DNA from: a bacterium
Lineage (GTDB): Bacteria; Zhuqueibacterota; QNDG01; CAYUAG01
Assembly: GCA_046483025.1 (NCBI GenBank)
Contig: JAWODZ010000126.1
Location: 11,981 to 75,980, forward strand
DNA: 64,000 nucleotides
Direction of reading: 5' to 3'
Positions within the stretch are counted from its first letter, which is position 1; every line of letters starts with the position of its first letter. Below, in pieces: positions 1,785 through 60,842 of this stretch. The notes below the pieces were generated by a model. It ran no database searches. It worked only from the letters and a program-made list of their open reading frames with translations, and had not been told where the DNA came from. The position numbers and the translations under genes were made by a program.

Positions 1785-3581
1785 ATGTGGAAGAATAATA
1801 TACGAAATTTTAGTATCATTGCTCATATTGATCATGGCAAGTCTACTCTGGCAGACCGTCTCCTGGAGCATACCCATACTGTATCTCCTCAAACCATGAT
1901 GGATCAGGTTCTTGATGATATGGATTTGGAGCGGGAAAGAGGTATTACCATAAAATCTCATGCCATTACTATGTATTATACTCATTCCGATAGGGAAAAA
2001 TATACCCTGAATCTTATAGACACCCCCGGACATGTGGATTTTTCCTATGAAGTATCCCGCAGTCTGGCTGCCTGTGAAGGGGCTTTGGTGGTTGTTGATG
2101 CAAGCCAGGGAATTGAAGCCCAGACGGTGAGCAATATATACCTGGCTATGGAGAATGATCTTACCATGATCCCGGTTATAAATAAAATTGATCTCCCCGG
2201 GGCTCAAATAGATGAAACCAGAGAACAATTAAAAGAACTTATGGGAGTTTCTGATGAAGAAATTCTCCTGGTAAGTGCTAAGGAAGGCCGGGGTATCAAG
2301 AAATTACTTGATACTATTATTGAAAAGATTTCTGCTCCCAGGGGAGACAGTAAAGCGCCTCTGCGGGCCTTGATTTTTGATTCTGTCTATGATTACTATA
2401 GAGGAGTTATAACCTATATTAAAATTATTGATGGTTGTTTAAAAAAGGGGGATACAATTACATTTTTTTCCAATGGAAAGGAATTTACTGCTGAGGAGCT
2501 CGGATTACTTCGTTTACATCGCCAACCAACTGAAAATTTTAAAACCGGAGAAGTAGGCTATCTGATTGCTAATGTGAAGAATTTAAAAGATGCCAGAGTG
2601 GGGGATACCATAATGTTAGCTGATAATCCTCATCCAGAACCGCTTCCCGGATTTAAGAAATGTAAACCGATGGTGTTTTCGGGGATGTTCCCTGCTTCTG
2701 CAGAGGATCTGGAAGATTTGCGGAACAGTCTGGATCGGTTGCAGCTCAATGATGCTTCTTTAATTGTTGAGCCCGAAAATTCAGAAGCTCTGGGATTCGG
2801 TTTTAGAGTAGGATATCTGGGACTTCTTCATATGGAAATAATACAGGAAAGACTGGAGAGAGAATATGACCAGAATTTAATTACCACTATCCCCAATGTT
2901 GAATACCGTATTACTTTAAATAATGGAGAAAAAGTTTTAATTGATAATCCTGCTCAGTTCCCTGCAAATCATACTATAGAAAAAGTGGAAGAACCTTTTA
3001 TTGCCGGACAAATAATTGTACCAGCTGATTTCCAGGGAAATATTATGCAATTAGCCCAGCAAAGAAGAGGTGTTTATAAAAATACTATTTATCTTGATTC
3101 TCAACGGGTAACACTTACTTATGATTTACCCCTTTCAGAAATCATCTTTGATTTTTATGATAAGCTGAAAAGTATTTCTAAGGGGTATGCTTCTTTTGAC
3201 TATGAGGTGACTGGATTCAGAGAATCAGATATGGTACGAGTGGATATTTTAATAAATTTTGAACCAGTGGATGCGTTATCCATGATTGTTCATAAAGAGA
3301 AAGCATATACCTGGGGGAAGAAATTAACCGGAAAATTGCGGGAGCTCATCCCCCGGCAAATGTTTGAGGTAGCAATTCAGGCTGCAATCGGCAGTAAAAT
3401 TATTGCCCGGGATACAGTTAAGGCTTTAAGAAAAAACGTTACAGCCAAATGTTATGGCGGGGATATTAGCAGAAAGCGGAAACTTTTGGAAAAACAGAAA
3501 GAGGGCAAGAAGCGGATGAAGAATCTGGGGAAGATAGAAATTCCCCAGGAAGCATTTTTGGCTGTTTTACAGATAAAATAG
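1785..3581 (+). CDS. lepA: elongation factor 4 (LepA), translational GTPase
   Basis: 598 aa. G1 motif AHIDHGKSTL, DTPGHVDF and NKIDL motifs. Full-length LepA architecture including the C-terminal LepA_C segment. Confidence 0.95.
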   Translation: MWKNNIRNFSIIAHIDHGKSTLADRLLEHTHTVSPQTMMDQVLDDMDLERERGITIKSHAITMYYTHSDREKYTLNLIDTPGHVDFSYEVSRSLAACEGALVVVDASQGIEAQTVSNIYLAMENDLTMIPVINKIDLPGAQIDETREQLKELMGVSDEEILLVSAKEGRGIKKLLDTIIEKISAPRGDSKAPLRALIFDSVYDYYRGVITYIKIIDGCLKKGDTITFFSNGKEFTAEELGLLRLHRQPTENFKTGEVGYLIANVKNLKDARVGDTIMLADNPHPEPLPGFKKCKPMVFSGMFPASAEDLEDLRNSLDRLQLNDASLIVEPENSEALGFGFRVGYLGLLHMEIIQERLEREYDQNLITTIPNVEYRITLNNGEKVLIDNPAQFPANHTIEKVEEPFIAGQIIVPADFQGNIMQLAQQRRGVYKNTIYLDSQRVTLTYDLPLSEIIFDFYDKLKSISKGYASFDYEVTGFRESDMVRVDILINFEPVDALSMIVHKEKAYTWGKKLTGKLRELIPRQMFEVAIQAAIGSKIIARDTVKALRKNVTAKCYGGDISRKRKLLEKQKEGKKRMKNLGKIEIPQEAFLAVLQIK

Positions 3582-16604: not shown

Positions 16605-16695
16605 ATGTGGAAGAGGGACAAAGGAAAGAGATGAAGGAGAATGGAGGAAGGAGAAGTGAATATGGAGAATGGAAAATGGCGAAAATCCTCCTGTT

Positions 16696-16719
16696 TCCAT
16701 TTTCCCGTTTCCGTTTTCC
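16696..16719. repeat. dispersed repeat family B (TCCATTTTCCCGTTTCCGTTTTCC), copy 1
   Basis: Near-identical 24-mer at 58877-58899. Here it is the pyrimidine arm of a long purine/pyrimidine hairpin spanning 16607-16722. Confidence 0.55.
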
Positions 16720-16792: not shown

Positions 16793-18598
16793 ATGGGACA
16801 GACAATGATAGAGAAGATTTTTACCAATCACAGCAGTAAAAAGATTACTGCCGGGGATATTGCAGAAATCAGCATAGATGCCCGTATTGCCAGGGATTTT
16901 GGCGGGGCAAATGTAGTAAAGAATATTCAGTCCCATAATCTTGCAATTGATGATCCTCAAAAAACCTTTTTTACCTTCGACTGTAATCCGGGAGGATCTG
17001 ATCAGCAATATGCAGAGAATCAGCACATCTGCCGTCAGTTTTCCCGGGAACGGGGAATCAAGGTGTATGATATCCAGTCAGGGATCGGTACTCATATTGC
17101 CATTGATGAGGGTCTGGTCCGACCAGGGGGCACGTTGGTATCCACAGATTCTCATGCCAATATTTTAGGATCAATCGGTGCATTTGGACAGGGTATGGGA
17201 GATCGGGACATTGCAGCGGTCTGGTCGGAAGGGAAAATTTGGTTTAAAACTCCGGAAACGGTAAAATTACTTTTTCATGGTACTCCACCAGATGAAATTT
17301 GTGCCAAGGATATAGTGCTGTTTTTATTGAAAAATCTGGGAGCTGCAGGATTATTAGGAAAAGCTGCGGAGTTGGAAGGTGACTATATCCAAACGCTCAG
17401 TCTAAATTCCCGCATAACCATTTCATCCATGGCTACTGAAATGGGTGGTATCATCGCTCTTTTTGCCCCCAATAAGGATGTCCTAGACCATTTTAAGGAA
17501 GCTACTGGAGAGGAGATAGAGCCAGTATACGCAGACAAGGATGCTCGATATGTTGCGGTGAAGGAATGTGATTTAAGTAAGATGGAACCTCTGACTTCCC
17601 TGCCCGGCCATCCGGAGGATGTGGTCAAGGTTACCGACCTGAAAGAAGTCAAAATTGATTCAGCCTTCATCGGATCCTGTACTAATGGACGATTATCAGA
17701 TATGCAAGCAGCTGCTAATATATTAAAGAACCGTAAGGTAGCTCCCGGAGTGGTGTTAAAGATTGTTCCATCTACCCGAAAAATATGGGAGCAGTGTCTG
17801 GAACAGGGAATCATTGATATTTTCATGAAAGCAGGAGCCTTGGTGGGTAATGCCGGTTGTGCCGGCTGTGCCAAGGGACAGATCGGGCAGAACGGTCCGG
17901 GTGAGATCACCATAAGTACCGGGAACAGGAATTTTGCCGGAAAGCAAGGTAAAGGGGAGGTGTATCTGGCCTCCCCGGAAACAGTTGCTGCTTCTGCAGT
18001 CAGCGGAATCATTACCAGTAAAAATAATATTCTGTCAAGTCCGAAAAGATACAAAACGGCAGATTATACAAAATCTGAAAAGAAAGTATCTTCACCAAAA
18101 ACCGAGAAGAAACCGGTAGAAATCCAGGGGCGGGTTTGGGTAGTTGACCAGGATAACATTGATACGGATATGATTTTTCACAATCGTTATCTTACCATAA
18201 CCGATGTTGACGAAATGGGGCAGTATACTTTTGATAATCTCAAAGGCTGGGAGGATTTTTCCGATAAAGCTGAAAAAGGTGACATCATTGCGACCGGATC
18301 CAATTTCGGAGCCGGTTCTTCCCGACAGCAGGCTGTGGATTGTTTTAAAAGCCTGGGAATACAGGCCATAATTGCAAAATCATTCGGAGCAATTTATGAG
18401 AGAAACGGCGTCAATTCCGGTTTTCCATTGATCAGTGGTGATTTGATTTCGTCGGGTATAGAAAGTGGTGAAGAAATAAAAGTGAATTTCAAGACCGGTG
18501 AAATTACCCGGTTAAAAACGGGTGAGACCATTCAGGCACAGCCCTTTTCTGACGTGCAGATGGACATTTATCAGAAGGGGGATCTGTTGAGGAAGTAA
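16793..18598 (+). CDS. aconitase-family dehydratase: fused large (LeuC-like) plus small (LeuD-like) subunits, 3-isopropylmalate/homoaconitate dehydratase type
   Basis: 601 aa. Residues 1-420 are LeuC/HACN-like with the Fe-S ligands ...GSCTNGR... and ..NAGCAGCAKG... Residues about 440-600 are LeuD-like (GSNFGAGSSRQQA). The unfused paralog pair lies at 19927-21677. Confidence 0.8.
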   Translation: MGQTMIEKIFTNHSSKKITAGDIAEISIDARIARDFGGANVVKNIQSHNLAIDDPQKTFFTFDCNPGGSDQQYAENQHICRQFSRERGIKVYDIQSGIGTHIAIDEGLVRPGGTLVSTDSHANILGSIGAFGQGMGDRDIAAVWSEGKIWFKTPETVKLLFHGTPPDEICAKDIVLFLLKNLGAAGLLGKAAELEGDYIQTLSLNSRITISSMATEMGGIIALFAPNKDVLDHFKEATGEEIEPVYADKDARYVAVKECDLSKMEPLTSLPGHPEDVVKVTDLKEVKIDSAFIGSCTNGRLSDMQAAANILKNRKVAPGVVLKIVPSTRKIWEQCLEQGIIDIFMKAGALVGNAGCAGCAKGQIGQNGPGEITISTGNRNFAGKQGKGEVYLASPETVAASAVSGIITSKNNILSSPKRYKTADYTKSEKKVSSPKTEKKPVEIQGRVWVVDQDNIDTDMIFHNRYLTITDVDEMGQYTFDNLKGWEDFSDKAEKGDIIATGSNFGAGSSRQQAVDCFKSLGIQAIIAKSFGAIYERNGVNSGFPLISGDLISSGIESGEEIKVNFKTGEITRLKTGETIQAQPFSDVQMDIYQKGDLLRK

Positions 18599-18798
18599 GG
18601 GGGTGTACTTATAGCCACGGATTTACACGGATAGACATGGATTTAGGTTAGTTAATAATTCTTGAAAAAAAATACCCATGGCAAAATTACCCATTTCCCT
18701 CCCTTGAAGGGAGGGAATAAAGGGAGGGTGAGATCGGAGCAGTCACTCTCCCCGAAAGAGTAGTTACCCTTCTTTCAGAAGGTTAGCTTCTGAATTGT
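18599..18798. repeat. about 200-bp dispersed intergenic repeat (family A), copy 1
   Basis: About 90% identical to 19645-19841. It contains three tandem CACGGATnnn units and a perfect hairpin CCCTCCC-ttgaa-GGGAGGG at 18697-18715. Confidence 0.75.
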
Positions 18799-18804
18799 GC
18801 ACCA

Positions 18805-18939: not shown

Positions 18940-19173
18940 TTGAAAAAAATTTCTATGTTACAATTGCGGAAAAATTCAAAACAAATAATCCAATGGGCCC
19001 GGCAGGGGAAAAAAATGATTTTAACCTATAGGGGAAATCCTGTTTTTCGTATTGAACCTATACAGGAAAATTCACCGGATGAAAACGATTTATTTTATAG
19101 TATAGATAAGCTTGCTGTGGATGAAGGGCAAAATATAACCAACCAGAAAATGGATACAATCATTTATGAATAA
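18940..19173 (+). CDS. type II antitoxin, Phd/YefM-like
   Basis: 77 aa. TTG start with RBS AAAGGAG 7 nt upstream. Overlaps the downstream PIN toxin by 8 nt (ATGAATAA). Confidence 0.65.
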   Translation: MKKISMLQLRKNSKQIIQWARQGKKMILTYRGNPVFRIEPIQENSPDENDLFYSIDKLAVDEGQNITNQKMDTIIYE

Positions 19174-19579
19174 AAATATATTTATTGATACCAGCGGTTA
19201 TTATGCTTTACTTATAAATCAGGATAATGCCCATAGAAAAGCAGTAGATATTTTACATGAAGCAGCTGAGGAGAAAATTCAATTTATAACTTCAGATTAT
19301 ATTCTTGATGAGATTGCTACCTTACTTCAATTTCGAGGAGTCGGGCACTTACTTCCTGAATTTTTTAAAAGAGTTTTCAACTCTCAGGCGTGTAGAATTG
19401 AATGGATGGACGAAGAACTGTTTCAGCAAACTAAATTATTTTTTTTCAAAAATAGTGATCATAAATATTCATTCACGGATTGTTTTAGTTTTATATTGAT
19501 GCAAAGAAACGGATTGGAAAAAGCATTGACCAAAGATCATCATTTCCGGGAAGCTGGATTTATTTCTCTTTTGAGTTAA
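19166..19579 (+). CDS. vapC: type II toxin VapC (PIN domain ribonuclease)
   Basis: 137 aa. N-terminal IFIDTSGYYALL with Asp7, and later D/E acidic residues typical of the PIN fold. Confidence 0.75.
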   Translation: MNKNIFIDTSGYYALLINQDNAHRKAVDILHEAAEEKIQFITSDYILDEIATLLQFRGVGHLLPEFFKRVFNSQACRIEWMDEELFQQTKLFFFKNSDHKYSFTDCFSFILMQRNGLEKALTKDHHFREAGFISLLS

Positions 19580-19594: not shown

Positions 19595-19648
19595 CCTCCT
19601 GAAGGTTTCGAATCCTTCATTTCATTCAGGACAGGCTCTTCAGGGGGG
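19595..19648. repeat. REP-like hairpin element (family C), copy 2, directly abutting repeat A copy 2
   Basis: cctcctgaaggtttcgaatccttcatttcattcaggacaggctcttcagggggg versus the copy at 5923-5969. Confidence 0.6.
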
Positions 19649-19841
19649 TGTACTTTTAGCCACGGATTTACACGGATAGACACGGATTTGGGTTGGTAAA
19701 TAACTCTTGAAAAAATTATTCATTGCAAATCACCCATTTCCCTCCCTCGAAGGGAGGAAATAAAGGGAGGGTGAGATCTGAGCAGTCACTCTCCCCGAAA
19801 GTGAAGCTACCCTTCTCTCATAAGGTTAGCTTCTGAATTGT
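19645..19841. repeat. about 200-bp dispersed intergenic repeat (family A), copy 2
   Basis: Aligned with 18599-18798 over its whole length: same CACGGAT triplet and same CCCTCCC..GGGAGG hairpin. Confidence 0.75.
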
Positions 19842-19926
19842 CCACCTAAACTTAAAAAAAATTTATAAAAATTGCTGAAAAATTTGTATCTTTATGATAA
19901 AAGGTTATTAATTAAAAAAGGCATAT

Positions 19927-21677: not shown

Positions 21678-21785
21678 GTTCGGTTAAGGTTCAGGGTTCA
21701 AAGGTTCAGAGTTCAGGGTTGGAAGGTTAATAATCAACATATATCCTGAATTTTAAACCCGGAACTCAGAACTCTGAAATTTGAA
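21677..21785. repeat. short tandem repeat (GGTTCAG-type heptamers) plus complementary CTGAA-rich arm forming an imperfect long hairpin
   Basis: aggttcggttaaggttcagggttcaaaggttcagagttcagggttgg, then ...cctgaattttaaacccggaactcagaactctgaaatttgaa. TTCAGAGTTC pairs with GAACTCTGAA. Confidence 0.6.
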
Positions 21786-31933: not shown

Positions 31934-33847
31934 ATGAAATCAAAATATAAAAAAAGTCCCTATAACATATTCCAGTTTTTTAAAAATGTTCTGGATGCTA
32001 TGGCTGATCTGGTTTATATAGTTAACAAAGACAGAGAGATACAGTATATCAATCCTGCCATGAAAAAAGTATTCGGCTCCAAAGATGGTAAAAAATGCTA
32101 TGAATACCTTTCAGATTTATCGATGACCTGCCCCTGGTGCAGTCATGAAAATGTATTAGATGGTCATACCATTCGCAGGGAGTGGTATTGTCAAAAAAAA
32201 GATAGAATCTATGATGTAATTGAAACTCCTTTACATAATGAGAATGGTCAGGTTTTCAAGCTAAAAATTATGCGTGATATCACAGATCTAAAGAGATGGG
32301 AACAAAAACTTCAGAATGAGAGAGATTTATTGAAAAATATCATGGAAAACACCCATTCCATGATGGCATATCTGGATAAAGATTTTAATTTTATTCATGT
32401 CAATACAGCTTATGCAGAAGGTTCGGGTTATTCAGTTAAAGAGCTAATCGGCAGAAATCATTTTGATTTATTTCCCAATCAAGAGAATTATGCAATATTT
32501 AAAAAAGTCAGAGATACCGGCAACTCAATCGGGTTAAAAGATAAACCTTTTACATTTGCCCATCAACCGGAAAGAGGTGTTACGTACTGGAACTGGACAC
32601 TCAATCCCATAACAAATTCAGCTGGGGATACAGAGAATCTGGTTTTAACGCTGGAAGAAACCACCAAACGAAAAAGAATTGAAAATAAACTCAAGGAAAG
32701 TGAGGCCAGGTATAAACTTGCCCAAAAAGCTGCCCATATTGGTACCTGGGATTGGGATATCAAAACAGGCAAGCTTGTCTGGTCTGAAGAAGTTGAAACC
32801 TTGTTTGGGTTGCAAACCGGAGAGTTTAAAAATGATTATAAAGAATTTGTCAAACTAATCCATCCTGAGGACAGAGAGAAGGTTCAGTCAGCAATTGACA
32901 GATGCATTGAAGTAAAAGAAGATTATGATGTAGAACACCGTATAATCTGGCCGGATGGATCAATTCACTGGTTGAGAGAAATGGGGAATGTTATTTGTGA
33001 TGAAAAACAATTGGCAGTACGTATGCTGGGAATTGTTCAGGATATCACTGAACAAAAGGAAGCCCGAGAAATATTGGAAAACACCAGAGAGCAGTTGGAG
33101 CGAGGTGTAAAAAAGCGAACCGAAGAGCTGGAAAAACTCAATACAATATTACAGCAGGAAATTGCAGAACGTAAAAATTATCAAGAACAGCTCCACTCTT
33201 TAATGTCTCGTATGACAAAGATGGAAGAACAGGCGCGCAGAAGAATTGCCACCGGATTACATGATCGCATTGTTCAATCTTTGGCCCTGACCAAAATCAA
33301 ACTGGAGAAGATCATTGATAATAATGAGGATATAAAACTGAAAGACACCTTAGAAGAGATTCATCAGCTTGTGGATCAAAATATTAATGAGACCCGTTCC
33401 TTAACTTTTGAAATAAGTCCGCCTATACTGTATGAAATGGGTTTGGTATCGGCTATTGAATGGCTTGCAGATAAGATGAGCAAAAAGCACGATCTTGATA
33501 TTACTGTTAAAAACGATGGTGAATTCACATCCATGGATGATAATATACGCAATATTCTTTTTCAAACCGTTCAGGAATTACTGAATAACATTCAAGAACA
33601 TGCCGGAGCCAGCCAGGCAGAAATACAGATAGCAGAAGAAGAGGATAATATTGTAATTCAGATTAAAGATAACGGAGTTGGTTTTAAGGTATCGGAAGTA
33701 AAACCGGATATGTCCCGTTTGACCGGCTTTGGGCTTTTCAATATTAAAGAACGACTGAAATATGTAAAGGGTCAGTGCAGGATTACATCCGGGAAGAATC
33801 AAGGTACAACTGTTGTTATTAAAGCCCCCTGGAAAAAGAATAATTGA
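31934..33847 (+). CDS. PAS-domain sensor histidine kinase (HisKA_3 / NarL-type), copy 1
   Basis: Two or three PAS/PAC modules, coiled-coil linker, H-box HDRIVQSLA and HATPase_c (GFGL..). Paralogous to 55773-58067. Confidence 0.85.
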   Translation: MKSKYKKSPYNIFQFFKNVLDAMADLVYIVNKDREIQYINPAMKKVFGSKDGKKCYEYLSDLSMTCPWCSHENVLDGHTIRREWYCQKKDRIYDVIETPLHNENGQVFKLKIMRDITDLKRWEQKLQNERDLLKNIMENTHSMMAYLDKDFNFIHVNTAYAEGSGYSVKELIGRNHFDLFPNQENYAIFKKVRDTGNSIGLKDKPFTFAHQPERGVTYWNWTLNPITNSAGDTENLVLTLEETTKRKRIENKLKESEARYKLAQKAAHIGTWDWDIKTGKLVWSEEVETLFGLQTGEFKNDYKEFVKLIHPEDREKVQSAIDRCIEVKEDYDVEHRIIWPDGSIHWLREMGNVICDEKQLAVRMLGIVQDITEQKEAREILENTREQLERGVKKRTEELEKLNTILQQEIAERKNYQEQLHSLMSRMTKMEEQARRRIATGLHDRIVQSLALTKIKLEKIIDNNEDIKLKDTLEEIHQLVDQNINETRSLTFEISPPILYEMGLVSAIEWLADKMSKKHDLDITVKNDGEFTSMDDNIRNILFQTVQELLNNIQEHAGASQAEIQIAEEEDNIVIQIKDNGVGFKVSEVKPDMSRLTGFGLFNIKERLKYVKGQCRITSGKNQGTTVVIKAPWKKNN

Positions 33848-33859
33848 AAAGGATTTTTT

Positions 33860-34507
33860 ATGAAAACCAAAATCATACTGGCTGATGATCATCAGATAAT
33901 CAGGGATGGATTAAAATCTTTAATTGATAAGGAGACGGTTTTTGAGCTGTTGGCCGAGGCCAGTAATGGAAGAACCACTGTACAACTGGCTGAAGAGATG
34001 AAGCCGGATGTGGTGATTATGGATATCAGCATGCCGGGACTCAATGGTATGGAAGCAGCTCGTCAGATTTTACACACCAATCCTGATATTAAGATTATTG
34101 CTCTGTCAGTACATTCAGAAAAACAGTTTGTATCCGGAATGCTGCGGGCGGGTGCTTCTGCTTATTTGTTGAAAGACTGTGCCTTCCGGGAGCTTAAAGA
34201 GGCCATTAACTTGGTCAAGCAGAATCAAATTTATTTAAGTCCGAAAATTACCGGTTTAATTATTCATGATTACAAAGAAAAACTGATTAAAGAAGATCAG
34301 TCAGTATTCAATGTGTTAACCGGCAGAGAAAGGGAAGTGCTTCAGCTACTTGCAGAGGGGAAAACAACCAAACAGGTTGCCGGAGAGCTGTATATCAGTG
34401 TGAAAACAGTTGAAACTCACAGACAGAATATAATGAACAAATTGAGTGTATACAACCTTCCGGAACTGGTAAAATATGCAATCCGCCAGGGTATTGTAAG
34501 TCTTTAA
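33860..34507 (+). CDS. LuxR/NarL-family response regulator, copy 1
   Basis: REC domain (DDH...D in VIMDISMP...K) plus a C-terminal GerE/LuxR HTH. About 60% identical to 58091-58741. Confidence 0.9.
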   Translation: MKTKIILADDHQIIRDGLKSLIDKETVFELLAEASNGRTTVQLAEEMKPDVVIMDISMPGLNGMEAARQILHTNPDIKIIALSVHSEKQFVSGMLRAGASAYLLKDCAFRELKEAINLVKQNQIYLSPKITGLIIHDYKEKLIKEDQSVFNVLTGREREVLQLLAEGKTTKQVAGELYISVKTVETHRQNIMNKLSVYNLPELVKYAIRQGIVSL

Positions 34508-34605
34508 CCAACCTGAATAATTTAGGCTGGATTTTTTAACCTTCCATCCATTTTACAAGTATTTTTTATTTACAGATTAACATCTCATACTTTTTTTCTG
34601 TGAAA

Positions 34606-34622
34606 ATAGGGAATTTCCCTAT
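34606..34622. promoter_or_regulatory. 17-bp perfect palindrome ATAGGGAA-T-TTCCCTAT, 34 bp upstream of the second regulator gene
   Basis: Seen directly: 8-bp arms around a central T. Size and symmetry fit a LuxR/GerE-type dimer operator. Confidence 0.5.
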
Positions 34623-34655
34623 TGTATCTCTCTCCCAATATTTTTTTCTTAGGTT

Positions 34656-35288
34656 ATGAGTATAAACATTTTAGTTGCTGAAAATAATATTGATATGAGA
34701 AAACAGATTTGTGAACTTTTGAGAAATGAGAGGAGTTTCAAAATTATTGCTGAAGATGCTGATGGTATGTCAGCCGTACAGACAGCCAAAAGAATAAAGC
34801 CGGATATGGTTTTAATGGATATTGCCATGCCGGAGCTTAGTGGAATGGCAGCTACTCATCTTATCAAGGAATTTAGTGAAAAAATAAAGATAGTGGGTTT
34901 AACCATGTTTATGGAGATGAGTTTTGTGAAGAGTATGTTCAAGGCCGGGGCCTCGGGATATATTTTAAAGGATACAATGGTACGAGAACTTCCGGTGGCA
35001 GTGCATAAGGTCTCTAGAAATCAGATTTATTTCAGTAATAAGATTGAGACTATGATTCTTTCTGATTATTTAAAAAAAATGAATACAGAACAATATAATC
35101 GGCAACAGTATCTTTCTGAGAATGATATGAAAATATTACAGTGTCTGGCACGGGGAGAAACCTGGGAGGAAATAACTGAAAAAACAGGACTGAATTGTAA
35201 TACGGTTGAAATAATTCACCAAAAAATATTACAGACCTGGATAATTTTTATAAAATCATTGAATAGTCAGGGAAAGAACTATTTGTAG
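34656..35288 (+). CDS. REC-domain protein with LuxR-type HTH and atypical receiver (AENN replaces the DD acidic pair)
   Basis: [16 protein letters not shown]... The phospho-acceptor Asp (MDIAMP) and the conserved Lys are retained. C-terminal GerE-like HTH ([29 protein letters not shown]). Sits directly upstream of korAB. Confidence 0.7.
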
Positions 35289-37914: not shown

Positions 37915-37975
37915 TAGTGTCGCTGTCGCAATTGATTCCGATAGCGATTGCGATCCTGATACCGATAGTGATGAA
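37915..37975. repeat. hexamer-periodic GATnnn tract (intergenic)
   Basis: gtcgctgtcgcaattgattccgatagcgattgcgatcctgataccgatagtgatgaa. Confidence 0.55.
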
Positions 37976-38738: not shown

Positions 38739-38789
38739 GATAGTGATGTCGAATACGATATCGATACCGATACCGATACCGAAAGTGAG
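38739..38789. repeat. hexamer-periodic GATnnn / CGATAC tandem tract (intergenic)
   Basis: gatagtgatgtcgaatacgatatcgataccgataccgataccgaaagtgag. Confidence 0.55.
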
Positions 38790-53023: not shown

Positions 53024-53264
53024 ATTTTCTCCATATCAACGTTCAATTATATTTTGAAATTTACTTAATTAAATATATATAAAAATTTGGGAATAATCAA
53101 TCGTATTTATTTTTGTAGGTTAACATTTTTTCCGTATTAGATGTAAAGTATACCATTTGTTTAGTCAGATTCCCTGAAGAGAAAAATCAGAAATTTACCT
53201 ATTGAATTTTTAGCTTTTATATTCAAAATTTAACAATAAATAAAAGTATAAAACTAGAAAAAGT

Positions 53265-55772: not shown

Positions 55773-58067
55773 TTGAAATTAAACAAAAAAAAATTATATA
55801 CTCCGGAATTGATTGCTGCCATAATTGAAACTATCCGTGGGGCTCTCGTTATTTTAGATGAGGATCTCCGGGTTGTTCATGCAAATCAGTCTTTTTACAG
55901 CACGTTTAAAGTAAATCCTGAGGAAACGGAATCCTGTCTTCTATATGAAATAGGAAACAACCAATGGAATATTCCTAAGTTACGTGAAATCCTGGAGAAG
56001 ATACTTCCCCCAAAAAAAACTATGATGGATTTTCTGGTGGAACATGATTTTCCTCATATTGGCTACCGTATTATGAAGCTGAATGCCATACAGATTACCA
56101 GCAAAGAGAACAGGATGCCGCTGATTCTTTTGGTAATTGAAGATATAACGGACAGAAAAAATAAAGAAAGAGAACTTTATAGTTCCAGAAATCTGCTGCA
56201 ATCAATCATAGATCATGCCGGCTCTATGCTGGCCTATCTGGATAGGGATTTTAATTATGTTTATGTGAATAGACTTTATGCTGAGAACCTGGGATATACT
56301 ATAAAAGAACTGGTAGGACAAAACCACTTTAATCTGTTTAAAAAAACAGAAAATTATAAGGTGTTTAATAAAGTAAGGGAAACAGGAGAAACTGTTTACC
56401 TGCAGGATAGGATAAATCCCTTTATTCGGAATGTAAAAGAAATAAAATATTATAACTTTATTCTGTCTGCGGTTAAAAACAGTAAGGGTAAGGTGAAAGG
56501 TCTGATTTTAACTCTTATGGATACTACCCGGAGAAAAGAATATGAAGATAGCCTTGATGCCAGTGAGAAACGATATAAACTGGCCCAAAAGATGGGTGGG
56601 ATCGGCACCTGGGAGTGGAACATTGAAACCAATAAACTCACCTGGTCGAAGGAGGTTTCCCGGCTCTATGGATTAAAAAAAATTCCCTCAAACTTGACCT
56701 ATAAGGGTTTTCTCAGAATGGTTCATCATGAAGACAGAAGAGAAGTGGAACTGGCTGTGAACCGGTGTATTGAGGAGGAACAAGAATATAATGTGGATCA
56801 CCGTATCCGGTTACCTGATGGTTCCATTCACTGGCTGAGAGAAAAAGGGAATGTGGTGCGGAATAAAAACAAAATGGCTGAGAGAATGCTGGGCGTAGTA
56901 ATGGATATTACCAGCGAAAAGAAAGCAGCTTTGGAGAAAGCCAGGCTGGCTGCTATTGTAAACACCTCTACCGATGCAATTTTGCTCTATAGTTCCCGGG
57001 GTATTCTCATTCACTGGAATTCCGGGGCTCGTCTGGTGTTTGGATATTCGGAAAAGGAGATGGTGGGTAAATCTATTTTCAGATTGGTGCCGGAGAGAAA
57101 GATGGATGAGTTGAATAAAATATTAAAACAGACCCGAGAAGGCAAATCCATCCGATATCTGGAAACCATCCGGAAAAGAAAAGATGGTAAAGAAATTCAT
57201 ATTGCCCTTACTGTAACTCCCATTCGGAATGAGAAGGGAAAAGTCAGTGCCATCTCTACTGTTGAGCGGGATATTTCACATCGCAAGGAGGTGGAAGCAA
57301 AATCCAGAAAACAGCACCAGGAACTGGAGATACGGGTAAAGCAACGAACTGAGGATCTTGCCCGGAGTCGGGACAAGTTGCAGCAGGAAGTGGAAGAACG
57401 TCGTCATTATCAGAAAGAGCTTCAGTCATTGGCTTCTGGTATTTCTCTGGTTGAAGAAAGAGAACGTCGTAAAATAGCTACTTATTTACATGATCAGGTA
57501 GTTCAAAATCTGGTATATTCAAATTTAAAACTGGGTCAACTGGGTCAGATGAAGGTAAATACATCTCAGAAAAATATTTTGAAGGAAGTCTCAAAATATA
57601 TCCGGGAAACTATTGGTGATCTGCGAAACCTGACTTTTGAAATCAGTCCTCCCATTCTCTATGAACTGGGATTTATAAAAGCAGTGGAATGGCTGGCTCA
57701 GCAGTATCAGGAACAATGGAAAATATCAGTTGAAGTAAAATCTACCTCTCTTTCTGTTCCTCTTGATGAAACAAAGCGGGTAGTTTTATTTCAAAGTGTA
57801 CGGGAATGTCTGAACAACATATGTAAACATGCTCAGTCTGAGAAAAATAAAATTTTTATCCGAGAACAAAAAAATAACCTCGAAGTTGAAATAGTGGATG
57901 ATGGTGAGGGTTTTAATCCGGAAGAAGTAAAATTATCCAGTGCTTCAGCACATGGATTCGGCCTGATCAATATACGGGAAAGACTGGAATATTTGAGTGG
58001 TTCCCTGGAAATTCAATCCCAGCCGGGACAAGGAACCCGAATACGGATGCGGATTCCAATTAATTAA
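55773..58067 (+). CDS. PAS-domain sensor histidine kinase (HisKA_3 / NarL-type), copy 2
   Basis: Paralogous to 31934-33847 (for example MLAYLDRDFNYVYVNRLYAE... versus MMAYLDKDFNFIHVNTAYAE...) with one extra PAS module. H-box HDQVVQNLV. TTG start per the track. Confidence 0.85.
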   Translation: MKLNKKKLYTPELIAAIIETIRGALVILDEDLRVVHANQSFYSTFKVNPEETESCLLYEIGNNQWNIPKLREILEKILPPKKTMMDFLVEHDFPHIGYRIMKLNAIQITSKENRMPLILLVIEDITDRKNKERELYSSRNLLQSIIDHAGSMLAYLDRDFNYVYVNRLYAENLGYTIKELVGQNHFNLFKKTENYKVFNKVRETGETVYLQDRINPFIRNVKEIKYYNFILSAVKNSKGKVKGLILTLMDTTRRKEYEDSLDASEKRYKLAQKMGGIGTWEWNIETNKLTWSKEVSRLYGLKKIPSNLTYKGFLRMVHHEDRREVELAVNRCIEEEQEYNVDHRIRLPDGSIHWLREKGNVVRNKNKMAERMLGVVMDITSEKKAALEKARLAAIVNTSTDAILLYSSRGILIHWNSGARLVFGYSEKEMVGKSIFRLVPERKMDELNKILKQTREGKSIRYLETIRKRKDGKEIHIALTVTPIRNEKGKVSAISTVERDISHRKEVEAKSRKQHQELEIRVKQRTEDLARSRDKLQQEVEERRHYQKELQSLASGISLVEERERRKIATYLHDQVVQNLVYSNLKLGQLGQMKVNTSQKNILKEVSKYIRETIGDLRNLTFEISPPILYELGFIKAVEWLAQQYQEQWKISVEVKSTSLSVPLDETKRVVLFQSVRECLNNICKHAQSEKNKIFIREQKNNLEVEIVDDGEGFNPEEVKLSSASAHGFGLINIRERLEYLSGSLEIQSQPGQGTRIRMRIPIN

Positions 58068-58090
58068 AATTAAAAAGAAAGGAAAGACTG

Positions 58091-58741
58091 ATGTCAATCA
58101 AGGTACTACTGGCAGAAGATCATCATATTATGCGTCAGGGCCTTCGCAGTTTATTAGAGGATCAATCCAATATAACTGTTGTGGGGGAAGCAAAAGACGG
58201 CCGGGAGACCATACAATTAGCCGGCAAGTTTAAACCTGATGTAATTGTTATGGATATAAGTATGCCTAACCTTAATGGAATGGAAGCTACTTACCAGATA
58301 CTGGAAGAACTCCCTGACGTAAAAATTATTGGATTATCGGTCCACTCTGATGAACAGTTCATTTCCGGGATGTTTCGGGCTGGAGCCTGCGGTTATCTGC
58401 TCAAAGATTGTGTAATAGATGAATTGATGAACGCTATTGATACAGTAGTACGAGATCAAATTTATATCAGCCCCTCTATTTCCAAACAGGTTATCAAGGA
58501 TTACCGACAATATCTTAAAAAAGATAAGGATTCCGTTTTTGAATTATTAACCGAGCGGGAACGAGAAGTGCTGCAGCTTATAGCAGAAGGCAAGTCCACC
58601 AAAGAGATTGCCGGTACTCTTTATGTCAGTGAAAAGACTGTAGCCACTCATCGACAGAATATGATGAACAAACTTGATATTTACAGTGTTCCAGAATTGG
58701 TGAAATATGCTATTAAAGAAGGGCTGATTTCCCTGAAATGA
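58091..58741 (+). CDS. LuxR/NarL-family response regulator, copy 2
   Basis: REC plus GerE HTH. About 60% identical to 33860-34507. Confidence 0.9.
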   Translation: MSIKVLLAEDHHIMRQGLRSLLEDQSNITVVGEAKDGRETIQLAGKFKPDVIVMDISMPNLNGMEATYQILEELPDVKIIGLSVHSDEQFISGMFRAGACGYLLKDCVIDELMNAIDTVVRDQIYISPSISKQVIKDYRQYLKKDKDSVFELLTEREREVLQLIAEGKSTKEIAGTLYVSEKTVATHRQNMMNKLDIYSVPELVKYAIKEGLISLK

Positions 58742-58876
58742 TTTCTAAAACACCCTCTCTTTTATCTCTCCCTTCGGCGAGCTCAGGAAAGGCCCTCAAG
58801 GGGGCATTCGTATTACTATTTCTTTCCCCTTGAGGGGAGATGTCCGCTGAAGGCGGACAGAGGGGTGTTTTTCCCT

Positions 58877-58899
58877 CCATTTTCCGTTACCCCGTTTCC
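58877..58899. repeat. dispersed repeat family B, copy 2, inside a 400-bp structured intergenic region
   Basis: tccattttccgttaccccgtttcc versus 16696-16719. Confidence 0.55.
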
Positions 58900-58977
58900 T
58901 TCCCCTAAACAGCGTCAACTTCAGAGTACTGTCTTCCGGCCTCTGAACGCTAATCCTCTCACGTTCTAATGCTCTCA

Positions 58978-59022
58978 GGTTCTTAAGTTCTTGTATCTTG
59001 ATTCTTGAGTCTTGAGTCTTCC
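58978..59022. repeat. tandem 7-8-bp repeat (TCTTGAG-like, 6 units)
   Basis: ttcttaagttcttgtatcttgattcttgagtcttgagtcttcc. Confidence 0.6.
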
Positions 59023-59141
59023 TTTTTCCATATCAGACTTTCTGAAGTCAATTATCAGAAACTTCCTGATTGAATTTTTCTTTTAAAATCAATACTTATA
59101 AGTATACTATAGGTTATTGATAAAAAGAAAATGGAAAAGAT

Positions 59142-59747
59142 ATGCCCAAAATTAAAATTTTAGTTGCTGATGATCATGAGATTGTACGTAAGGGGCTCCG
59201 GGAACTGATTAATCAGCAATCTGATATGGAAGTAGTATCTGAGGCAAAGGATGGAGAGGATGCGGTTCGTATGGTCCGTCAATATGCTCCAGATGTTGTG
59301 TTAATGGATGTGGTCATGCCCAACACCAATGGAATCGAGGCAACAAAAGAGATCAAATCTCAATTTCCACAAACCCGTATTATAGCCCTCTCTATTTATG
59401 CTGATCGTTCTTATGTTATTCAGATGTTCAAAATGGGGGTGTCGGGATATTTGCTCAAGGAAAGTGCTTTTAATGAATTGATTAAGGCTATTCGAAAAGC
59501 TCTTAATAATCAGGTTCATCTCAGTTATTTACTTTTTAAAGGAGTTTATCTGGAATTTCAATCTCTCATGCAGAAAGATACAGATCACAATGTACAAATA
59601 TTAAATCAAAGAGAGCAGACAGTTTTAAAGGAATTATCCGATGCGAATTCCATGAAAGAAATTGGGGAAAGAATGAATACCTCGGTTGATAGTATTGAGT
59701 CAGTGATTGAGAGTATTTTAAATAAGTGGATGTTAATTAACAGATAA
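59142..59747 (+). CDS. REC-domain protein with degenerate LuxR-type C-terminus (third member of triad 2)
   Basis: ILVADDHEIVRKGL...VLMDVVMP. C-terminal helix-turn-helix-like EIGERMNTSVDSIESVIESILNKW. Confidence 0.7.
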   Translation: MPKIKILVADDHEIVRKGLRELINQQSDMEVVSEAKDGEDAVRMVRQYAPDVVLMDVVMPNTNGIEATKEIKSQFPQTRIIALSIYADRSYVIQMFKMGVSGYLLKESAFNELIKAIRKALNNQVHLSYLLFKGVYLEFQSLMQKDTDHNVQILNQREQTVLKELSDANSMKEIGERMNTSVDSIESVIESILNKWMLINR

Positions 59748-59834
59748 AGCAAGAAGGAGAGGTGTTATATATTACCTGTAAAAAAAGTTTTATGTCCAAC
59801 GGATTACAGTGATTTTTCCTACCAGGCTCTGGAT

Positions 59835-60218
59835 GTGGCTGTTGAATTTTGTGAGAAATTTAAAGCAAAACTCTATTTGGTACATGTGATTGCACCTGTT
59901 CCGCAATCCATGGGAATGCCCACCTCAGCCGGTTTTGATATTCCCATGTATCAGGAACAGCTCAAGGAGCATAATCAGGAATCACTGAAAAAAGTGACAG
60001 AGGAAAAAATACCGGATAAAATTCAAACGGAATCCCTTATCGGGTATGGATTTGAAGCTGACAGTATCATTAAGGTTGCAGAAGAAAAAGATGTGGATCT
60101 TATAGTTATTTCCACCCATGGTCGGACTGGATTGAAACATTTTTTTCTGGGTTCTGTAGCGGAAAAGGTGCTTCGTCATACTTCCAAACCTGTGCTTACC
60201 ATCCGTGCTTCCGAGTAA
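59835..60218 (+). CDS. universal stress protein (UspA family), N-terminally truncated as annotated
   Basis: ...LYLVHV...GS...ISTHGRTGL..LGSVAEKVLRH..PVLTIR is the UspA core. The same frame upstream encodes KKVLCPTDYSDFSYQALD (the expected first strand) but has no ATG/GTG/TTG. A GTG at 59761 with SD aaggag is +1 out of frame across an A7 run (59779-59785). Confidence 0.7.
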   Translation: MAVEFCEKFKAKLYLVHVIAPVPQSMGMPTSAGFDIPMYQEQLKEHNQESLKKVTEEKIPDKIQTESLIGYGFEADSIIKVAEEKDVDLIVISTHGRTGLKHFFLGSVAEKVLRHTSKPVLTIRASE

Positions 60219-60683: not shown

Positions 60684-60842
60684 TAATAGAAATTAGTTAG
60701 AAAATAAAATATTCTTTTTTCATTTTTTTAATTCTGCCTTTTATTTGTTTGAACTGATTGATCAAGGGATGAGAATGAAGAAAGATTTGAATTTTTTATA
60801 TCCATTTTTTTATAAATTTTCATTTCTTGAGGAAAATTTTAT

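Follow-up and report, generated by a model that had tools for sequence, protein, structure and literature searches.

A probable spacer of repeat DNA and a conserved 47-bp block between two regulator genes of an uncultured bacterium, probably of the FCB group

Families of REP palindromes are usually lineage-specific, the gene for their RAYT (a Y1 transposase) lies in the same genome with copies of the repeat on its flanks, and the cyanobacterial STRR are heptamer repeats (CCCCAGT and the like). REP and REPIN sequences are short extragenic palindromes present in multiple copies, often as inverted pairs that fold into a larger hairpin; they are often found just 3' of ORFs, and their presence is variable among strains (PMC3116915, PMC3337134, PMC3733652). 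REPINs are inverted REP doublets that are mobilised by RAYT transposases (PMC3116915, PMC3337134). Two large REP super-families are defined by a GTAG or CGTC tag, which is unpaired and lies at one end of the element, and REP elements have been proposed to terminate or stabilise messages (PMC3733652). Intergenic repeats of the heptamer TAACTGA are found in Beggiatoaceae, Cyanobacteria and Bacteroidetes (PMC4679880). The gap discussed here lies in a 64-kb stretch of bacterial DNA (the window; GC content 38.6%) and can be compared with both kinds of repeat. The source is an uncultured bacterium whose FtsH shares 61-67% identity with proteins labelled KSB1, Calditrichia, Ignavibacteriaceae and Chitinispirillaceae, which places it probably in the FCB group. 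The gap probably lies between two transcription units and consists of three layers: an inverted doublet of a palindromic unit and a set of short tandem arrays, which together form a spacer of repeat DNA, and a 47-bp control block for the RR3-usp unit.

The gap (58742-59141, 400 bp) separates RR2, a NarL-type regulator with REC and GerE domains (58091-58741), from RR3 (59142-59747, plus strand), a regulator of 201 aa that combines a receiver domain with a degenerate tail giving a weak, partial GerE match. RR2 belongs to the gene row cupredoxin-DUF3096-AAA kinase-HK-RR2, and on the 3' side RR3 is followed by usp, a 143-aa ORF (orf143), ftsH and an HPF-CSD gene; a paralogous triad (triad 1) is located at 31934-35288. 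An earlier sequence-only reading of the window had described a structured intergenic region of 400 bp, which is borne out with the limits given above, and its observation was confirmed in part: both the hairpins and the array of TCTTGAG-like units proved to be genuine and not random. The same reading had called the downstream gene REC-only; the receiver domain is there, but the degenerate GerE-like tail means that the product is not strictly REC-only. The third regulators of both triads (59142-59747 and 34656-35288) have a receiver domain and a degenerate HTH-like tail, with a GerE match of 22 bits over profile positions 2-44 of 57 or none, and they share 30% identity with each other. In a collection of 5.8 billion proteins, just five are close relatives of RR3 (100, 82, 74, 74 and 73% identity), beyond which lie ordinary NarL regulators at no more than 49% identity. 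In usp, the window has ATA at 59769-59771 where the orthologue on contig L002 (position 7910) has its ATG start; the mechanical ORF starts only at the GTG at 59835 (127 aa), and its Pfam match runs from profile position 21. An unusual start codon, a mutation or a sequencing error could each account for the ATA. For a small minus-strand ORF at 58713-58880 Pfam gave no match, and it was discarded as non-coding.

The first layer begins 6 nt past the RR2 stop codon and has a T run (T5) at its end. At 58747-58871, an outer stem (AAAACACCCTCT/AGAGGG(G)TGTTTT) surrounds three local hairpins. Most of what had been described here was recovered: the enclosing outer arms AAAACACCC/GGGTGTTTT at 58747-55 and 58863-71, the hairpin GTCCGC-tgaag-GCGGAC at 58842-58858, and a perfect inner hairpin with 11-nt arms CCCTCAAGGGG/CCCCTTGAGGG at 58793-58803 and 58826-58836, the spacer of which is 22 nt and not 25 as stated. 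The folding energy of a 144-nt stretch is -55.3 kcal/mol on the plus strand (z -3.28) and -56.3 on the minus strand (z -3.95), values equalled by 0 of 200 shuffles on either strand. R1, a covariance model of the palindromic unit that was run on the window and on fetched loci, matches this stretch twice. The right unit (58822-58870, plus strand) scores 64.9 bits (E 1e-21) and comprises hairpin B (TTCCCC-TTGA-GGGGAG, 58824-58839), hairpin C (TGTCCGC-tgaag-GCGGACA, 58841-58859) and a tail, GAGGGGTGT (58860-58868). The left unit (58748-58803, minus strand; 13.4 bits, E 0.006) is diverged and has an expanded hairpin C, and its sub-type is also present in contigs L094, L166 and L189. Since the two R1 matches sit on opposite strands, the nested hairpins are an inverted doublet of the unit. 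Rfam returned only chance-level matches over the whole window (gathering thresholds) and over 58600-59300 (E up to 10), namely snoRNAs, whalefall-1 (14.8 bits) and CRISPR-DR10, and a search inside the window for a second copy of the gap gave nothing beyond chance matches of 10-15 nt. The ends of attC sites have the consensus RYYYAAC/GTTRRRY; on inspection the ends of the doublet do not fit it, and an attC or integron site was rejected.

The unit is not confined to this locus. Its architecture, T-CTCCCC-TTGA-GGGGAG-A followed by a variable hairpin and then GAGGGGTGT, recurs at the start of contig L088 as CTCTCCCCTTGAGGGGAGA-CCCTCGGCgtcaGCCGAGG-aagaaGGGTGT, which matches window positions 58826-58868 in its arrangement. 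A metagenome scan with the pattern CCCCTTGAGGGGAGA-N16-30-GGGTGT yielded 106 stretches, which have in common, beyond the specified bases, TCT in front, a hairpin within the variable segment and GAG before GGGTGT; the apparent sequence constancy of the constant hairpin is partly by design because the scan pattern fixed it. R1 finds 160 matches in 552 kb of fetched loci, mostly outside long ORFs, and a single doublet in the 64-kb window. More than 100 contigs bear the unit, often in multiple copies (four to eight in several, such as L112, L105, L103 and L097), with a GC content of 31-71%; the taxonomic breadth of the unit was judged by this GC content and by sample types only. Inverted pairs are frequent, about two dozen by our reading of the R1 match table. 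A further copy, in contig L094, matches the window at 78% identity across 115 nt, a span that takes in the following array, and this contig has neither an RR2 or RR3 homologue nor synteny to the window. Rfam gave nothing but a tRNA on 15 other unit-bearing loci.

In the variable hairpin C of the family, double compensatory changes are found in 7 of 7 pairs, and its covariation score is 0.346 compared with 0.112 in shuffles (reached by 0 of 500) and at most 0.093 for slid partners, these counts being taken from an alignment that was itself fitted to R1. Mismatches in the family's pairs are divided about equally between GU (63) and AC (59), and orientation relative to flanking ORFs, on crude ORF calls, is even, with 16 units in the 'same,same' and 16 in the 'opp,opp' arrangement. 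Balanced GU and AC mismatches and the even orientation argue for a DNA-level palindrome and not for a strand-specific RNA. The unit appears to behave like a dispersed, multi-copy DNA-level repeat of the REP/REPIN type.

Like REP and REPIN sequences, the unit is a short palindrome that is found in inverted doublets, often just 3' of ORFs, and is variable between strains; in several contigs it is multi-copy, and its matches lie mostly outside long ORFs. The two units of the window (58748-58803 on the minus strand, 58822-58870 on the plus strand) are separated by a spacer and able to fold as one hairpin. At about 49 nt with two hairpins, it is slightly longer than classical REPs (20-40 nt). The differences are of several kinds. 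The GTAG or CGTC tag is absent from the flanks of 150 aligned units, the conserved ends of which are instead T-CTCCCC and GAGGGGTGT; the unit is bipartite, in that a constant hairpin is joined to a variable one and then to a G-rich tail in which the 3' arm of the first hairpin recurs; and the same 15-nt hairpin occurs in contigs of 31 to 71% GC. No RAYT was seen among the ORFs beside units, whereas DUF559 endonuclease genes are flanked by the unit. The doublet is thus kept out of the two REP super-families, since it lacks the tag and no RAYT was seen. A full-text search of the searchable literature for the hairpin sequence of the unit gave nothing relevant.

Several observations were made around the family. 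In the syntenic contigs L105, L125, L136, L148 and L168 a unit stands directly after one gene (ending ...TDPRVFIQQTVI*), with heptamer arrays before it, and because the variable hairpins of these contigs are quite different, different species have kept the unit at this one site or gained it there anew. In a GC-rich subgroup of the pattern matches (L099, L114, L150, L161, L178, L183 and L193), an extra conserved GGAACCGGCTTTGCCGG is found upstream and GCTACACGCAGTGAGC in the variable hairpin; each contig has a single copy, and this sequence, which has no Rfam match, may be a distinct conserved element. Elsewhere in the window, a Phd-like/PIN toxin-antitoxin pair (18940-19173, 19166-19579) has on either side one of two direct copies, about 90% identical, of an element of about 210 nt (18597-18803 and 19642-19848). 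Both copies open with GGGGGTGT, carry an array of three CACGGATTTA units and contain a hairpin, TCCCTCCC-TTGA-AGGGAGGGA followed by AGGGAGGGTGAG, of the same style as the unit of the gap.

Comparison of the gap with orthologous loci, which had been proposed as a check, separates what is stable from what is not: the hairpins are not conserved, the arrays vary and a 47-bp block is invariant. For this comparison, contigs of RR3 relatives were fetched and five lineages were aligned over the proximal gap. The gap, 400 bp long in the window, extends to about 625 bp in L002 and to 1,336 bp in L084, and in both of the latter the unit and the nested hairpins are absent after the RR2 stop codon. A Logan contig, L001 (sample SRR31818008), matches the window without a difference over 2,305 nt (56470-58774; 100% identity) and then diverges abruptly at 58775, which is the centre of its own palindrome (compare L001 2306-2553 with 58775-59022). 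It carries only the simple palindrome TCTCTCCCTTAAGGGAGAGA, and an identity of 69% resumes within the arrays. Where the window has the doublet, L001 has a single unit (2279-2316, minus strand, 19.5 bits), so the structured part is polymorphic even among near-identical genomes. The first 27 nt of the left unit (58748-58774) are common to both; because L001 shares these and not the right end of the element, this is not a clean insertion or excision, and a simple MITE insertion was rejected. No target-site duplication is visible between L001 and the window. On these comparisons, the unit appears to be gained, lost and exchanged between strains.

The same sample holds contig L082, which starts at window position 60826 and in which the ftsH product is identical to that of the window from 60843 on; no exact match to the RR3 or orf143 protein is recorded for SRR31818008. 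It may be that the segment 58775-60826, with RR3, usp and orf143, is a divergent allele that arose by recombination and has repeats at its ends. In another RR3 lineage, a gene for an IS110-family transposase lies in the gap upstream of RR3 (L088 434-1645; also L086 2-994). In L088 this gene is located between the arms ACCACGAAG...CTTCGTGGT, and in L084 the same arms enclose a palindrome of tandem arrays.

The position of the doublet suggests what it may do for its host. It sits directly after the RR2 stop codon with a closing stem and a T run, and on this basis it would probably act as a terminator of the kinase-RR2 message, as a stabilising hairpin at the 3' end of that message, or as both. 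The likeness to intrinsic terminators lies in the GC-rich closing stem followed by TTTTT immediately past the stop codon, and a run of A on the 5' side of the doublet would give bidirectionality. In contrast to the canonical case, the closing stem spans about 100 nt with three hairpins, far above a canonical loop, and the orthologues examined (L002 and L084) have no hairpin at that position. The whole repeat portion might also be read as purely selfish or neutral DNA, in which the doublet is a non-autonomous mobile element, the arrays are products of slippage and nothing has a role even in termination. The presence/absence polymorphism, the dispersal and the lack of orientation bias in the family agree with such a reading, as does the landing of an IS110 element in the same gap in another lineage. 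It is not really exclusive of the layered reading, and against it stand the start of the doublet 6 nt past the stop codon, its end in T5 and the units with differing hairpin C that are kept after the same gene in several related contigs. The last of these, units kept directly after one gene, hints at use as a 3'-end hairpin. The purely neutral reading is somewhat unlikely.

How the unit would be mobilised was addressed by clustering the ORFs beside units in search of a transposase. None was recurrent, and only syntenic housekeeping genes and genes encoding DUF559 proteins came up repeatedly. All 4 DUF559 genes in loci derived from the scan pattern (L096, L101, L112 and L123) have a unit within 30 nt. 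Six further DUF559 loci were chosen independently: two of these (L197 and L198) have strong R1 matches on both sides, one (L203) has weak R1 matches, one (L205) has hairpins of the same style and another sequence, judged by eye only, and no unit was found in the two from Caldithrix. Across L096, L101, L112, L123, L197 and L198, the units stand no more than 30 nt from the small DUF559 genes, in many cases on either side. The 64-kb window has no DUF559 gene, and nothing relevant on a link between DUF559 and palindromic repeats was found in the searchable literature. Most DUF559 homologues lie on contigs below 2 kb, as would be expected if flanking repeats break assemblies. It is conceivable, though unlikely, that the unit belongs to an undescribed cross-phylum class of REP-like elements whose partner is a DUF559 (Vsr-like PD-(D/E)XK) endonuclease and not a RAYT. 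Doublets such as that of the gap would then be non-autonomous derivatives, and the arrays of 7-8-base units could be a by-product of the same process.

The second layer consists of these arrays. A stretch at 58877-58899 had been singled out as a repeat ('repeat B'), an identification that does not hold: even at 3 mismatches the window yields no further copy of it, and only pieces of 10-11 nt recur, at 16694-16712. 'Repeat B' is instead a stretch of a family of arrays with 7-8-base units, here pyrimidine-rich and on the plus strand (58876-58905; TCCATTT TCCGTTAC CCCGTTTC CTTCCCC). Related contigs also have such arrays beside the unit: in L094 the homologous array comes after the doublet, and in L084, L120 and L134 it stands ahead of units. 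Further degenerate tandem arrays were found by TRF at 58950-59022 (plus strand), where a 16-mer (CTAATCCTCTCACGTT) repeated 2.1 times (58950-58983) is followed by a series of units starting with TCTT (TTCTTAAG / TTCTTGTA / TCTTGAT / TCTTGAG / TCTTGAG / TCTTCC). TRF scores the latter as TCTTGAG repeated 3.6 times with 94% matches at 58996-59020, extendable to 58980-59020. The tandem array that had been described as six TCTTGAG units is thus real, and the count of six applies only loosely: on inspection it breaks down into two octamers, three heptamers and one partial unit. With up to 2 mismatches, TCTTGAGTCTTGAG occurs 3 times in comparison with 0.55 expected, and pyrimidines make up 70% of the plus strand in the array part of the gap.

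Arrays of this sort are a general feature of intergenic DNA in this genome. Among the 18 TRF arrays of the window scoring at least 39, 15 fall in its non-coding 15%, and other intergenic examples are located at 16636-16719, 21682-21730, 37933-37972 and 38756-38782. The unit varies by locus (GGAGAAT, TTTCCAT, GGTTCAG, TCTTGAG, CGATAC, CACGGATTTA), and periods of 6-10 occur. At 16633-16719, a GGAGAAT-type array and, directly behind it, its inverse (TTTCCAT/TTTCCCG-type) make up a long imperfect hairpin built of tandem repeats; its second half is the closest relative that 'repeat B' has. Arrays of a similar kind are found next to the unit in the unrelated contigs L092, L097, L102, L105 and L125. 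Like TAACTGA and STRR heptamers, the arrays are tandem, of 7-base period and intergenic, with many loci per genome and a variable copy number. They differ from them in having no dominant unit, with many unrelated units and mixed 7- and 8-base periods, in lying upstream of a promoter block and not a few nucleotides from a start codon, and in their physical coupling to a palindromic unit, which extends to unrelated contigs.

In the orthologous gaps the kinds of array can still be recognised (YCCGWTAC octamers of the 'repeat B' type, the CTCACGTTCTAA type and nTCTT(G/T)AG heptamers), with arrays of the TCTTTAG or CTCTTGC type at the position of TCTTGAG, and unit sequence, copy number and spacing differ. 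Changes in unit sequence and copy number between orthologues also affect 'repeat B', and they speak against the TCTTGAG array as the control site that it had been proposed to be. The arrays turn over fast, most probably through slippage and recombination, and contain no conserved sequence information; they may be tolerated because they lie upstream of the promoter. One finding is not obviously predicted by pure neutral turnover, namely that an array of the TCTT(G/T)AG type lies upstream of the block in 5 of 5 lineages. It is a point in favour of treating the array as a binding array or DNA-shape element for a LuxR-type regulator, that is, as an upstream enhancer of the RR3 promoter: the nTCTT(G/T)AG-like heptamers lie 10-60 nt upstream of the block in every lineage, and three heptamers equal 21 bp, which is the spacing of the TATCAGA repeats within the block. 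Conversely, RR2 is 89% identical, yet the unit (TCTTGAG, TCTTTAG, CTCTTGC), the copy number and the interval between array and block are all variable; comparable arrays built of unrelated units occupy intergenic regions unconnected with these regulators; and no array of this sort precedes a second site that resembles the block, at 53163. An enhancer role for the array is quite unlikely on this balance.

The third layer, which the sequence-only reading did not flag, is the only invariant element of the orthologous gaps. The block TATCAGAcTTTcTGAAGtcAaTTATCAGAAACTtCCTGATTGAATTT (59031-59077, plus strand) contains TCAGA-N3-TCTGA and a 17-bp imperfect palindrome, ATCAGaaacttcCTGAT (59053-59069), which abuts a -35-like TTGAAT; the centres of the two inverted repeats are about 22 bp apart. 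In the five lineages, where RR3 is 73-82% identical, 41 of the 47 positions are invariant (consensus TATCAGAyTTTyTGAAGnnAnTTATCAGAAACTyCCTGATTGAATTT). A candidate promoter at 59070-59098 (plus strand) is made up of TTGAAT (59070-59075), 17 nt and TACTTA (59093-59098), and the form TTGAAT-N17-TAnnTA is kept in all five lineages (alignment; invariant T154, A155, T158 and A159). A sigma-70 scanner reported no plus-strand promoter in 58000-60000; since it did not report this form, the RR3 promoter stays a candidate. A perfect 14-bp palindrome, ATACTTATAAGTAT (59092-59105), overlies the candidate -10 and is absent from the orthologues.

A second copy of the block is located at 53163-53209 (plus strand); some 70 nt further on begins the cupredoxin gene, the first of the kinase-RR2 row. 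It keeps 31 of the 41 invariant positions, as against 25 for the best chance match in 128 kb, and L002 also has a second copy, at 1478, with 32 of 41. The copy in the window has no good -10 at 17 nt, and it retains the sequence without all of the palindromic symmetry, with one clear inverted repeat only, which favours recognition as DNA over an RNA hairpin. Comparable palindromes are found in related systems: in triad 1, ATAGGGAATTTCCCTAT abuts TTGTAT in the same arrangement, and in a triad from Gemmatimonadota (L003; RR 60% identical) ATCAGggtatttCTGAT is followed by TGCATTT in a 600-bp gap between the RR and a REC-only gene. Triad 1 had been thought to hold a 17-bp palindrome (34606-34622) in place of the structure of triad 2; this contrast falls away, as triad 2 has its equivalent at 59053-59069, in the same place relative to the TTGnAT hexamer.

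From its conservation and position, the 47-bp block is the probable operator/promoter region of the RR3-usp unit. The control site for the downstream regulator that the sequence-only reading had proposed is thus probable at 59031-59077, and not in the hairpins or the TCTTGAG array, where it had been placed. The heptamer recognised by NarL is TACYYMT. The block resembles the operators of NarL/FixJ/LuxR regulators in autoregulated two-component systems in that its inverted repeats are about two helical turns apart and abut a -35-like hexamer, that it is present before the system's own operon and before a second target unit, and that the predicted site has a fixed position at the promoter in five lineages, with analogous palindromes in triad 1 and L003. 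It differs from them in that its sequence is not the NarL heptamer and in that the second copy keeps only one clear inverted repeat. A NarL/LuxR-type regulator of the triad, most likely RR2, would bind the block at both sites, and the system would in this way control itself and the RR3-usp unit.

A riboregulator in the gap, that is, a structured cis-acting RNA (3' or 5' UTR) or small RNA controlling RR3 and usp, as the sequence-only reading had also suggested, is very unlikely and finds no support in the comparisons, even though the fold is significantly stable and the element lies between two co-directional genes with a T run after its last stem: the hairpins are a copy of a dispersed repeat with no Rfam match in the gap or at the 15 other unit loci, they are absent from the orthologous gaps examined (L002 and L084) and from L001 despite its identity upstream, the family has no strand bias in wobble pairs and no orientation bias relative to genes, a homologous doublet stands in the unrelated locus of L094, and the second copy of the block keeps sequence and not palindromes, which argues for DNA recognition.

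With the gap read as repeat spacer plus control block, work on binding and on the promoter shifts to 59031-59077 and its twin at 53163-53209, away from the hairpins and the TCTTGAG array. The unit family is absent from Rfam, and the dense intergenic 'structure' in this uncultured lineage, probably of the FCB group, consists for the most part of repeat DNA, which is relevant to screens for riboregulators. For the organism, the prediction is of an autoregulated kinase/RR2 system that would also drive the atypical regulator RR3 and a stress protein.
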